16,094 bases of DNA from a virus. The stretch is from the UHGV virus genome UHGV-0121456. One strand, given 5' to 3'. The notes under the pieces are model-generated. The model made no database searches, had not been told where the DNA came from, and saw only the letters and a list, made by a program, of their open reading frames with translations. Made by a program: the position numbers and the translations under genes. Shown piece after piece: positions 2,925 to 7,456 of this stretch. Each line of letters starts with the position of its first letter. The stretch's first letter is position 1.

Positions 2925-3734
2925 TCAATGAACGGTATCGAGCAGCTTTAACAGCTCAGGGAATCGGGATTCGAAGAAATGCGGCTGCGTCTCGCGCGGA
3001 TTTGCGGGACTGGTGATGTTCTTGCCGAACATGCAGCCTTTCGCTGTCAGTGACCAGAATTTTTTGATGTTGTTAATCGCGGTACGGCTGTATCGTTCGC
3101 GCTGCTCGACGATCCCCAGCTTCACCATCTGGTGATATGCCTGATTAGCTGTCAGGCGGATACCATACTGCTTCAGCAGTGCACTCAGTGACAGCGTGGG
3201 GCGGCTTGAGCCATCAGGCGCGTCAGCAGGAGCATCAATGGCATAGCGCGGTGCCAGATTCGGTAAGCCAACAGCCTCCTGGAGTTTCTGACAGGCCCCA
3301 AGCACTGAAGAGTTAGACAGGTTTAACTCCCTGCGCATAAAGTCCAGCAGAATCACTCCAGCCTGCATCTTGTCAGCAGCCTGCCCGGATAATTTTTCCG
3401 GTGCGCTGGTTACCATATCGAAAGTACGGATCACCTTCAGATGGAATGACGGGCTGATCCACATTGCATAGGCATACACCAGTTCTTTGCAGACATACGT
3501 CCCCTGGTTATTTCCGCCATTAATGACGCTAACTGGTTGATTTTGTTCCAGAGGCGGAATTCCACCCTCGGTGAAAAGTTGTTCAATCAATTCACAGGTT
3601 TGCTTATTGGAGAGCCAGTATTTCGGGCGGTTTTTTTGTTCTCCCCCGGCTGCCCTGTGCAGATCGTTCAGGCTGTAACGCCCATAAGCATCACGACGAA
3701 CTTCAATACCATCAATAACCATCAGATTATTCAT
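2925..3734 (-). CDS. KilA-N domain protein (antirepressor-like)
   Basis: N-terminus MNNLMVIDGIEVRRDAYGRYSLNDLHRAAGGEQKNRPKYWLSNKQTCELIE fits the KilA-N DNA-binding domain. ATG at 3734 with a GGAGA Shine-Dalgarno. Confidence 0.7.
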   Translation of the reverse strand: MNNLMVIDGIEVRRDAYGRYSLNDLHRAAGGEQKNRPKYWLSNKQTCELIEQLFTEGGIPPLEQNQPVSVINGGNNQGTYVCKELVYAYAMWISPSFHLKVIRTFDMVTSAPEKLSGQAADKMQAGVILLDFMRRELNLSNSSVLGACQKLQEAVGLPNLAPRYAIDAPADAPDGSSRPTLSLSALLKQYGIRLTANQAYHQMVKLGIVEQRERYSRTAINNIKKFWSLTAKGCMFGKNITSPANPRETQPHFFESRFPELLKLLDTVH

Positions 3735-5116: not shown

Positions 5117-5604
5117 TAAGCCCCCACGTAATTCCCTGACAGATACCACTCATCACTCGATACAGCGCGCTTGCTGCTTTTCCGTAAACACTGCTCACGA
5201 CGCGCCAGAAAATTGTTTCGTTCTGGCTGGGAATGGCTTTCACGGAATGCCGCCATCCACACCGTTGCAGCACGACGGTATAAGCCCCTGGACTCCAGTT
5301 CTTCAGCCTGGCGGGTCAGGCACAAAATCTCCCGCGGGTCGTTAGTGCCGACATAGAAATTGCGCACAGGTCTGGTTTCACGAACTGGTTGCGGTTCCGC
5401 CTCCTGCGCTCTCTCAGTCAGGCGCGGGAAATGTCTGCGTGTATCCCCTTCACAACGGTGAGCCACACGACCACTCTGACGTAACTTGCTTGCTGACTGC
5501 AGAACGCGCTGCCGTGAGTAACCAGCAAAAGCATCCGCAATGTCTCCGGAAGTACACCCCGGATGGGCTTCAATGTATTTCTGAACTTCATTCAAAAGAC
5601 TCAT
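5116..5604 (-). CDS. PerC/ANR-family regulator-like protein
   Basis: C-terminal LESRGLYRRAATVWMAAF resembles the PerC/ANR motif. Probable ATG at 5604..5602 with GGGGG Shine-Dalgarno, directly after the replication gene stop. Family assignment is from memory of the motif. Confidence 0.5.
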   Translation of the reverse strand: MSLLNEVQKYIEAHPGCTSGDIADAFAGYSRQRVLQSASKLRQSGRVAHRCEGDTRRHFPRLTERAQEAEPQPVRETRPVRNFYVGTNDPREILCLTRQAEELESRGLYRRAATVWMAAFRESHSQPERNNFLARREQCLRKSSKRAVSSDEWYLSGNYVGA

Positions 5605-5606
5605 GA

Positions 5607-6548
5607 TCACCCCCTGAATCCTGCCGGGATCTGGCTGTAGTCCACGTTGTCGTAACTGGCTTTGAAGTACGGGTCTTCGCGTTTTTCGGTGTACGTGCTG
5701 ACGGACGGCGATAAGCGCAGGGAAAGCTCATCCCATTTTTCCCGCAGCTTCGACGGGCTGAGCACGTTACGGCACCAGAACGGATCGCGGCTGACGCGGC
5801 TGTACATCTCGCAGATTTGTTTGTGAGTACGACCATCCTGCACACACATCAGGCGAATTTCGTTTGCCCAGGCTGTCCAGTTCGGTTCTTTGGGACGAAC
5901 CACCTCGCCGTCACATTCGGCGGCCTGCTCGTACAGGGCGATGATTTTTTTCCAGAGCCACTGTGCGCAGGTCAAATCATCCTGCGTTCCCCACTGGCGC
6001 TTTTTAGGGCTGAATACAACCGCATCAGGATGGCGAGTTAAAAAATCCTGTTCATCCGTCTGCGTGTCCGGTTGCGAAGCGTCCGGACGAGAAGGTTTTT
6101 TATCTGACGGATCATGTTTTGATTTTACTGACGGATCCCCGCCAGATTCTGACGGGTGAAAACCCGCTTTTTTGCCAGATTTCGACGCATCAAATTTTGA
6201 CGGGTCAGATTTTGATGCGTCAGATTTTGACGGGTCAGAATCTGACAGTTGAGAAAATGCCGCTGCCTGAAGCTTCGCAACGTTAAGCTGATAAACATTC
6301 GACGCATTGCGGTTACCCTGGCGACGCGCCTTACGCGTTAACCAGCCTTCTGCTTCCAGCCGTGCGATAGCCGTTCTGACGGTACTCATCCCCGCGCCAA
6401 TCTGACGGGCAATGGTTTCAATTGATGGCCAGCACACACCTTCGTCATTACTGAAATCAGCCAGGCGGGCCATAATTGCCACGCTGGATAATTTCATGCC
6501 TGACGCTGCGCAACCATCCCATACATAGCCGGTTAATTTAGTGCTCAT
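5607..6548 (-). CDS. Replication initiation protein (lambda O-like organiser): N-terminal helix-turn-helix, repeat-encoded linker, C-terminal domain
   Basis: N-terminus [70 protein letters not shown] is a winged-helix replication-initiator type. Internal SDPSKSDASKSDPSKFDASKSG repeats are encoded by DNA iterons. Position is cro-proximal. Confidence 0.7.
   Translation of the reverse strand: MSTKLTGYVWDGCAASGMKLSSVAIMARLADFSNDEGVCWPSIETIARQIGAGMSTVRTAIARLEAEGWLTRKARRQGNRNASNVYQLNVAKLQAAAFSQLSDSDPSKSDASKSDPSKFDASKSGKKAGFHPSESGGDPSVKSKHDPSDKKPSRPDASQPDTQTDEQDFLTRHPDAVVFSPKKRQWGTQDDLTCAQWLWKKIIALYEQAAECDGEVVRPKEPNWTAWANEIRLMCVQDGRTHKQICEMYSRVSRDPFWCRNVLSPSKLREKWDELSLRLSPSVSTYTEKREDPYFKASYDNVDYSQIPAGFRG
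6145..6253. repeat. Iterons (about 15 bp tandem repeats, ATTTTGACGGGTCAG-like): candidate replication origin inside the initiator gene
   Basis: Units at 6194-6208, 6209-6223 and 6224-6238, with degenerate copies at about 6145-6161, 6176-6193 and 6239-6253. A moderately AT-rich stretch lies at 6085-6125. Confidence 0.6.
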
Positions 6549-6717
6549 GACCGACCTCTATTTCCCTGAATTTACGACGAAACTGTTCGAGCGGGCTGAA
6601 GCACTCATGCTCATAGCCTTCACGGAGGTAGATAACCCGTTGTGTTTCCGGCTCCCAACGAATGACTCTGACGGGCACTCCGTAGTGATCTTTGAACCAG
6701 CGGTTAACTTGTCGCAA
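6538..6717 (-). CDS. Alternative-frame small ORF (59 aa, TTG start) or the true C-terminus of the preceding gene after a frameshift
   Basis: Frame ending at TAA 6540..6538 encodes [58 protein letters not shown]. It overlaps the replication-gene ATG (ATGAGCACTAA). AAGGAG at 6731..6726 lies 8 nt upstream of TTG at 6717..6715. Confidence 0.35.
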
Positions 6718-6896
6718 AGGACTGTCTCCTTCTGCCGGTTGAAATCACCCACAGCCCACTCAGCAAAGCTGTGGGTTACAATTTCCCTGTCACCTGGTAC
6801 ATTCACTGCATAGCAATACTCCACCTTCGCTTTTCCACCCGGTACAGGAAGCGCAATCAGTTGCGAGCGACGGTAGTGTGTTGTTAAACTGTTCAT
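6558..6896 (-). CDS. Hypothetical protein, frame-conflicted; the N-terminal half looks genuine, the C-terminal half looks like out-of-frame translation
   Basis: ATG at 6896..6894 is coupled (ATGA) to the upstream CII-like gene. The second half ([55 protein letters not shown]) is Ser-rich and low in complexity. Confidence 0.4.
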
Positions 6897-7456
6897 GCGT
6901 TAGTTTCTCCACAGTCACGACACGCCACGGCGCCCGGAGCTGCACACTCGCGGGCGTCACTACTTTCTGAAACGCAAAAGATTTTGTAGACCAGTGCTGC
7001 ATGCTCCTGCAGCTTCGAAATTGAGAGATACAGCTCGTCGTTAATTGCTGTCTTCTCATGCGGTTCCACTACACCGTCTTCGATTGCTGAACGAATCTGT
7101 TTTGAATAACTGCCGATCTGTTCAATGACTTCCAGCAGACGCTGGTTAATATCGGCGTTGTCCACATCCTCGACGTCAGGAAGAGACACAAAGACGCCAT
7201 TTGCAGACTGCGCCACAGCGTCAGCAATGAAGTGAGTTCCACCAGCACGTTGCAAAATCATTGCCCATCCCAGCGGGAAAATCTGATCGCCATCGGCACG
7301 AAGGCGGTTAAATAATGCGTTCTCTGTTACATCCAGCCAGTCAGCAGCTTCAGCGTAACCCCCCGGCAACGCTGCGATAGTTTTTCTGACAGCTTTCACG
7401 TACCACTCAGGCTGTTTTTCTATTTTCCAGTGATGCTTACCCACGGTTAGCCTCAT
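6893..7456 (-). CDS. CII-like or YdaT-like early regulatory protein (tentative)
   Basis: 187 aa immediately downstream of cro on the same strand, the position lambda cII occupies. Family assignment is tentative and from memory. Start is ATG at 7456, or GTG at 7444 with an AGG Shine-Dalgarno. Confidence 0.45.

Follow-up and report, generated by a model that had tools for sequence, protein, structure and literature searches.

Two out-of-frame genes, ymfM and a nested DUF4222 gene, probably overlap ahead of the replication gene of an e14-like prophage

Main finding

The stretch of DNA analysed here, 16,094 nucleotides (nt) of the virus genome UHGV-0121456 (the window), carries, judged by its sequence, the immunity and replication region of a lambdoid prophage of the e14/SfII/SfIV type, read on the minus strand. 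Between its CII-like regulator gene, ymfL, and its O-like replication gene there are two open reading frames (ORFs), which an earlier note on this DNA had described as a frame conflict within one small gene. We conclude that they are probably two genes, each with its own start and overlapping in different frames, and not one broken gene. The first, ymfM, would initiate at an ATG coupled to the ymfL stop codon, while the second, a 59-codon gene for a protein of the DUF4222 family, would initiate at its own AAGGAG-TTG inside ymfM (Table 1). Both genes have been annotated already, but in different databases and never together.

A DUF4222 gene nested in ymfM

The second ORF is not a chance frame, since its 59-residue product matches the Pfam family DUF4222 (PF13973) with an E value of 8.6e-19 and 67.3 bits, against a cut-off of 27, over profile positions 3-52 of 53. 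The coding sequence (CDS) that RefSeq PGAP calls at this place, WP_001250269.1, coincides with it exactly, both in the Escherichia coli strain identical to the window and in K-12; in these two annotations there is no CDS between ymfL and the DUF4222 gene, i.e., ymfM is left uncalled. A tblastn search with the 59-residue protein hit 111 phage records, each covering 80% or more of the query, and in Klebsiella phages, where DNA identity falls to 77%, the protein is still 88% identical. Its AlphaFold 2 model has a predicted local distance difference test score (pLDDT) of 83.5, and the product, a relative of the prophage regulator RgdR, is a small beta-barrel protein of the Tudor/SH3-like kind.

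As one of its two readings, the earlier note had offered a nested small gene starting at a TTG at 6717 behind a perfect AAGGAG. The motif is indeed present (6731-6726), and the nested gene gains support from the PGAP CDS, from the start codon, which is mostly ATG in relatives, and from substitutions that are synonymous-biased. Across 53 distinct sequences the DUF4222 gene starts with ATG in 26, TTG in 24 and GTG in 3, and relatives with ATG starts carry GGAGG- or GAAGG-type motifs at the position of the AAGGAG. Upstream, the DUF4222 frame is closed by a TGA 10 codons before the TTG. As a separate observation, in the minimum-energy fold of 6715-6733 (minus strand) the AAGGA of the nested Shine-Dalgarno sequence pairs with the UCCUU that lies just before the TTG and overlaps it, a small hairpin that ribosomes on ymfM could open; the fold of the region as a whole does not stand out from shuffled sequences (z = -0.36), and in relatives that start with ATG no such pairing is evident.

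Selection in the shared nucleotides

Within the shared 160 nt, counted from the ymfM frame, that of DUF4222 lies at +2, which amounts to -1 (6896-6717 = 179), and substitution patterns show that strong purifying selection there acts on the DUF4222 protein. By codon position of the DUF4222 frame, diversity in the overlap is 0.032, 0.019 and 0.136. Among E. coli-like sequences, 13 of the 14 variable sites are DUF4222 third positions, and all 13 variants are silent in that frame, while each alters the second position of a YmfM tail codon. At the amino acid level DUF4222, with a divergence of 0.20, is the best conserved of the four proteins compared (0.42-0.63 for the others). The same comparison shows no detectable constraint on the amino acid sequence of the YmfM tail: among distant relatives, divergence at fourfold sites is 0.58 in the overlap, against 0.57 in ymfL, 0.51 in the YmfM N-terminal domain and 0.62 in the replication gene, and because it is no lower in the overlap than in the flanking genes, the tail amino acids are not detectably constrained. 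The earlier note would have given up its frame conflict if the 112-codon frame had proved conserved end to end and the alternative frame unconserved; in the 3' half we find the opposite.

Codon usage in the overlap shows, in addition, that the ymfM frame is held free of stop codons, beyond chance, until 9 nt before the replication-gene ATG. We collected 135 loci and divided them by whether the upstream ORF reads into DUF4222 (the adjacent type) or not. The ymfM frame, i.e., the +1 frame of DUF4222, is open over DUF4222 codons 1-52 in all 53 distinct adjacent-type sequences, which differ from one another at up to 49% of nucleotides. For comparison, the +2 frame across DUF4222 holds 2-10 stops in the adjacent type, and internal +1 stops occur in 13 of 16 control DUF4222 genes that are separated from ymfM or have no ymfM. 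When synonymous codons were resampled with the codon usage of neighbouring replication genes, the expected probability of an open frame was 0.02-0.15 (mean 0.07), and all 22 representatives more than 12% apart in nucleotide sequence are open.

Avoidance of stops is also visible at individual codons. Val, Leu and Ile codons that stand before an A-initial codon (columns 4, 18 and 28) are NTT or NTC only, and the 12 third-base changes inferred at these columns are all between T and C, pyrimidine to pyrimidine. At the other fourfold sites, 54 of 98 changes (55%) swap purine and pyrimidine, which puts the probability of the observed pattern at 0.449^12, or ~7e-5. Before a C- or T-initial codon, GTG, CTG and ATA are freely used, and column 16 has GTA or GTG only next to C. 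Furthermore, E. coli and Klebsiella differ just upstream of the nested start by an indel of 3 nt, which leaves the ymfM frame intact, and in a divergent second lineage (L047, Buttiauxella) the +1 frame is likewise fully open.

The N-terminal domain of YmfM and the origin of the overlap

The conserved, predicted-folded part of YmfM is its N-terminal 52-66 residues. The AlphaFold model has three strands and two helices in approximately residues 10-66 (pLDDT 70-83), and residues 68-112 are predicted to be disordered (pLDDT <50). In the N-terminal domain, diversity by codon position of the ymfM frame is 0.052, 0.056 and 0.121, and among E. coli-like sequences silent third positions make up 12 of the 19 variable sites. 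The description of the start of this frame as protein-like and of its continuation as Ser-rich, both from the earlier note, holds up well: the domain shows this codon periodicity and has stand-alone homologues, and the last 53 residues include 12 Ser. Confirmed too is the overlap of the ATG at 6896 with the stop of the upstream CII-like gene as ATGA (the ymfL TGA occupies 6895-6893).

YmfM of the window is identical to YmfM of K-12 e14 (b1148) at 109 of 112 residues (97%); the three differences all lie in the tail, residues 1-60 are the same, and so is the whole DUF4222 protein. The 112-residue form is the dominant form in the protein database, with 1295 members in one cluster alone, and the family of the N-terminal domain is small, with 56 representative clusters found by phmmer among 1.84 billion representative proteins. 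PHROGs holds the forms as two families, one of 63 residues (phrog_20047) and one of 112 (phrog_1170). Scans of Pfam and NCBIfam assigned YmfM to no family in either, and a structural search with the YmfM model found no neighbour. In a side observation, YmfM residues 19-50 matched very long repeat proteins (P0212, P0229, P0233, P0246) many times over, each time weakly; a scan of four long repeat proteins found Listeria-Bacteroides repeats in P0212, DUF7507 in P0230 and P0244, and neither in P0233. We judged these matches to be summed weak beta-hairpin similarity and rejected homology.

In distant phages the N-terminal domain recurs as a stand-alone gene for 59-65 residues, always coupled to the stop of the CII-like gene as ATGA. 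Citrobacter phage phiNP, for example, has a 65-residue and Hafnia phage yong2 a 59-residue version, and in both the separate DUF4222 gene follows only after a rha/antirepressor gene of ~700-830 nt. The two genes are likewise separate, ~700-850 nt apart in these phages and in loci L041-L049, and rha often parts the DUF4222 gene from ymfM in relatives. Providencia phage PSTRCR_117lys lacks DUF4222, and its 63-residue version stands directly before the replication gene. In related phages the genes are arranged in the order CII, YmfM N-terminal domain, Rha, DUF4222 and replication protein, each joined to the next by a stop/start overlap of 4 nt. We propose that where rha is absent, ymfM would have come to run on through DUF4222 in the +1 frame, a read-through that would have given YmfM its Ser/Thr-rich, predicted-disordered tail. 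The yong2 record (L005 2992-3679) also contains an annotated 'Ash family protein' CDS that starts at 2996, inside the DUF4222 gene (2992-3177) and in its +1 frame; its start has probably been called too far upstream, and the DUF4222 gene was overlooked in the annotation.

The junction with the replication gene

The replication gene is read in the frame of ymfM (6896-6548 = 348), with only the TAG and 9 nt between the two. The second frame stops (6540-6538) inside ATGAGCACTAA, where the replication gene starts, as the earlier note had stated, and this DUF4222 TAA falls 5 nt downstream of the replication-gene ATG (6548-6546), an arrangement seen in the majority of loci. Throughout the adjacent type, the stop of the ymfM frame is a TAG or TAA derived from a DUF4222 NTA codon, 9 nt (rarely 3 or 6) before the ATG; it is in the frame of the replication gene and is overlapped by an AGG/GAGG motif. 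This layout is retained before at least five different, unrelated replication-gene N-termini. In the separated arrangement, DUF4222 overlaps the replication-gene start by 4 nt (ATGA or GTGA). At all three junctions stop and start overlap or lie within ~10 nt, the spacing of translationally coupled junctions.

It is tempting to speculate on what keeps the frame open. An open ymfM frame would deliver ribosomes that translate ymfM to the replication-gene start by termination-reinitiation, and early termination of ymfM would be selected against because it would uncouple the replication gene. The geometry is compatible with ymfM ribosomes reaching the replication gene in this way, alongside those that end DUF4222 5 nt past its ATG, a proposal that we put forward tentatively and hold at somewhat less than even. 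Or, perhaps, the length of the YmfM tail itself matters.

Two further observations concern this junction. In K-12 e14 (L002 1959-3326) the replication gene after DUF4222 is truncated at 216 nt and abuts a terminase fragment, and this decayed prophage still retains the ymfM/DUF4222 junction with the replication-gene start. Of two natural variants (proteins P0093 and P0055), one is a stop-loss DUF4222 of 86 residues that reads over the N-terminus of the replication gene, and the other is an apparent deletion that fuses the YmfM N-terminal domain to the tail of an alternative-frame ORF (window 5588-5845).

Weighing the alternatives

The alternative that survives best also has two overlapping genes, but takes the YmfM tail to be accidental read-through, its openness being due to shared ancestry and codon habits and not to selection. 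Several results agree with it: the tail amino acids evolve at the synonymous rate of DUF4222, the tail is predicted to be disordered, and short natural forms of YmfM with only the N-terminal domain (59-67 residues) exist. A within-gene synonymous shuffle, moreover, gives a probability of an open frame of 0.07-0.7 per sequence; this shuffle is uninformative, because it retains the codon composition that avoidance itself would have shaped. Against accident stand the open frame in 53 of 53 sequences despite ~58% divergence at fourfold sites, the absence of any change to purine among the 12 at codons always at risk, when codons of this kind take purines freely in a safe context, and the full openness of the divergent Buttiauxella lineage. 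We regard an accidental tail as unlikely.

Several points nevertheless weigh against a selected overlap of two expressed genes. By chance, the +1 frame is also open in 3 of the 16 DUF4222 genes that are unlinked to ymfM or separated from it. With at least 64% amino acid identity, DUF4222 genes of the adjacent type belong to a rather close clade, and their sequences are not independent; the statistics of stop avoidance are parsimony counts over a 160-nt tree. In Tatumella (L055) the YmfM N-terminal domain is adjacent to DUF4222 but stops after a short overlap, so a long read-through is not obligatory. The role in coupling to the replication gene is read from geometry only, and the literature that we found reports induction of the ymfM transcript only, with no ribosome profiling or mass spectrometry for either product.

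The remaining alternatives fare much worse than an accidental tail. A programmed -1 ribosomal frameshift, joining the YmfM N-terminal domain to DUF4222 in a fraction of translation events, would suit two frames that differ by -1 and a DUF4222 frame that is open from 6744, and the internal AAGGAG could in principle stimulate shifting, as in dnaX and prfB. We consider it very improbable, as the ymfM frame contains no X_XXY_YYZ heptamer at all (just relaxed motifs, and weak ones), the RNA fold of 6520-6780 is no better than that of shuffled sequences (z = -0.36), and the nested ORF in relatives has an ATG or GTG start and a Shine-Dalgarno sequence of its own. The lambda G/GT tail chaperone gene and dnaX, both programmed -1 frameshift genes, likewise have two frames offset by -1 and a shared 5' part; unlike them, the pair described here has neither a slippery heptamer nor a conserved fusion, and its downstream frame has its own start and Shine-Dalgarno sequence.

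It is equally hard to believe that DUF4222 alone is real, as in RefSeq, and that the ymfM ORF is spurious. PGAP does place no CDS between ymfL and DUF4222, and YmfM does lack a Pfam or NCBIfam family, but its N-terminal domain shows codon periodicity and synonymous-biased polymorphism in the ymfM frame, occurs as a gene of its own in distant phages, in every case coupled by ATGA to the CII-like gene, and has PHROG families of its own and a fold prediction of moderate confidence.

Least credible of all is an ancestral gene of ~119 codons broken by a 1-nt indel or by sequencing error, and hence a pseudogene or artefact: rare in-frame fusion proteins of 102-152 residues do exist (P0030, P0052, P0059, P0065, P0090), but they form five clusters of 1-14 members each, all with different junctions and mostly from raw-read assemblies, against 112- and 59-residue forms that number thousands, a two-frame layout common to E. 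coli, Shigella, Klebsiella, Enterobacter, Citrobacter, Kosakonia, Pantoea and Kluyvera, a stop in the DUF4222 frame 10 codons upstream of its start, and halves that are separate genes elsewhere. The single-base frameshift near 6715-6745 suggested by the earlier note accordingly finds no support, given the dominance of the 112-residue form, the rarity of fusions, the missing slippery heptamer and the separate halves, and the intact ORF of ~119 codons that it proposed to look for among homologues is represented by nothing beyond those five tiny clusters with their differing junctions.

Two overlapping genes thus remain the reading that we prefer, and a known counterpart is lambda Rz/Rz1, an out-of-frame overlapping (overprinted) pair of phage genes. 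In pairs of this type, as here, one gene lies wholly or largely inside the other, with one frame constrained and the other compositionally biased. Unlike those pairs, the overprinted part here is only the C-terminal tail of the outer gene, constrained merely to stay open, and both ORFs end within ~10 nt of the start of the next gene.

Setting of the overlap in the prophage

On the minus strand of the window the gene order is ymfK (cI-like), ymfT (cro-like), ymfL, ymfM, the 59-codon DUF4222 ORF and the O-like replication gene. A 551-nt stretch around the overlap is 100% identical to E. coli 13P477T, and DNA of the overlap region is present in 2647 of 5426 complete E. coli genomes as well as in Shigella phages SfII and SfIV. 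PGAP names the CDS of ymfL 'protein YmfL' and starts it 12 nt further in. The replication gene is labelled replication protein O or primosomal protein in phage records. Its interior contains four to five tandem 15-nt units, CAGATTTTGACGGGT-like, at 6176-6250 (also at 6128-6157), which encode a repeated SKSD/PSK peptide; they look like origin iterons inside the initiator gene, in the fashion of lambda.

On the opposite strand, a 90-codon antisense ORF (6541-6813, plus strand) runs codon for codon in phase with DUF4222, as is typical of a shadow ORF. In Klebsiella phage ST101-KPC2phi6.3 (L003 1335-1622, minus strand) it is this antisense shadow ORF that is annotated as a CDS (QBQ71618.1), and both ymfM and DUF4222 are unannotated.

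Table 1. Features at and around the ymfM/DUF4222 overlap, in window coordinates
Feature	Position	Strand	Details
ymfL, CII/CP76-like regulator	6893..7456	-	Pfam Phage_CP76, E 1.6e-13; NCBIfam phage_reg_YmfL, E 9.8e-50
ymfL stop/ymfM start overlap	6893..6896	-	TGA stop 6895-6893 overlaps ATG as ATGA
ymfM ORF	6558..6896	-	112 codons + TAG (6560-6558); ATG 6896-6894; phrog_1170 full-length match, E 2.9e-70
YmfM N-terminal domain	6738..6896	-	codons 1-53, singly coding, ending in an EWAVGDF motif; conservation, codon periodicity
Shine-Dalgarno AAGGAG of nested gene	6726..6731	-	8-nt spacer to TTG; part of Q-K-E in ymfM
Nested DUF4222 gene (RgdR-like)	6538..6717	-	59 codons; TTG start 6717-6715, TAA stop 6540-6538; Pfam PF13973
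Dual-coding overlap	6558..6717	-	160 nt; YmfM tail (residues 60-112) in +1 frame of DUF4222
Junction TAG-AGG-TCG-GTC-ATG	6546..6560	-	ymfM stop; GAGG Shine-Dalgarno (6558-6555) overlapping the stop; 6-nt spacer; ATG
O-like replication initiator	5607..6548	-	HTH_36 N-terminal domain; Pfam HTH_36, E 4.3e-11

SfiC, RgdR and the function of the two products

ymfM of K-12 e14 (b1148) has been reported to be SfiC, which is induced by the SOS response and inhibits formation of the FtsZ ring (Ansari et al., 2020; bioRxiv 10.1101/2020.11.19.390815). In that study the ymfM ORF was cloned into pBAD24, a ymfM deletion was used, and filamentation through loss of the FtsZ ring was reported with the clone of the K-12 ORF; the text available to us makes no mention of DUF4222 or of a nested or overlapping ORF (bioRxiv 10.1101/2020.11.19.390815). 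The K-12 gene resembles that of the window in its neighbours, with ymfK, ymfT and ymfL upstream and an O-like gene downstream. The SfiC work treats the ymfM ORF as a single gene, where we distinguish two overlapping ORFs.

By its coordinates, the cloned ymfM ORF would carry the nested Shine-Dalgarno sequence, the TTG and 53 of the 59 DUF4222 codons, which cover the matched domain (residues 2-53), and the ymfM deletion presumably removes the same stretch of DUF4222. The original SfiC library fragment contained the entire DUF4222 gene. Since the clone carries both ORFs, the published experiments did not separate the two products. And because the constructs and deletions described carry or remove both, the nested DUF4222/RgdR-like protein might account for some or all of the SOS-inducible filamentation credited to YmfM (SfiC), although we consider this doubtful. 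Selection at the amino acid level in the 3' half of 'ymfM' acts on the DUF4222 product only.

RgdR (ECs1581), the one member of the DUF4222 family that we found to have been studied, is a 99-residue prophage protein that regulates type III secretion and motility in enterohaemorrhagic E. coli O157:H7, and its RGD motif (residues 20-22) was reported to be important for activation of the type III secretion system (Flockhart et al., 2012; PMC3378721). The two proteins share the Pfam domain, with ECs1581 matching PF13973 at an E value of 2.1e-23 (82 bits), and the DUF4222 protein of the window is 41% identical to RgdR over 49 residues by BLASTP. The RGD motif is absent here: opposite it stand V-N-R, residues 4-6 of the window protein, in a register obtained by extending backwards by hand a BLASTP alignment that starts at RgdR residue 24 and window residue 8. 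RgdR also differs in having N- and C-terminal extensions and in sitting on a P4-like element. Like the DUF4222 gene of the window, however, rgdR lies directly upstream of, and overlaps, the replication gene of its element, which encodes a primase; in Sakai Sp7 (L136 3720-4019) its overlap with the start of this P4-alpha-like primase gene measures 4 nt. The annotated Sakai record has no ORF that overlaps rgdR out of frame. Because DUF4222 adjoins the replication gene in lambdoid and P4-like elements alike, its position hints at a role tied to replication-gene expression.

Significance

The overlap explains a disagreement in annotation that affects about half of complete E. coli genomes, in which K-12 databases list ymfM, RefSeq lists DUF4222 only, and some phage records list neither or the antisense shadow ORF. 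It also means that the experiments from which SfiC took its identity left undistinguished two overlapping products, one of them in a family with regulatory activity, that of RgdR. Finally, the pair offers a clean natural example of overprinting, in which the new frame has apparently been selected just for openness and ends exactly at the next ribosome-binding site, and the hypothesis of translational coupling is thereby directly testable with silent point mutations.

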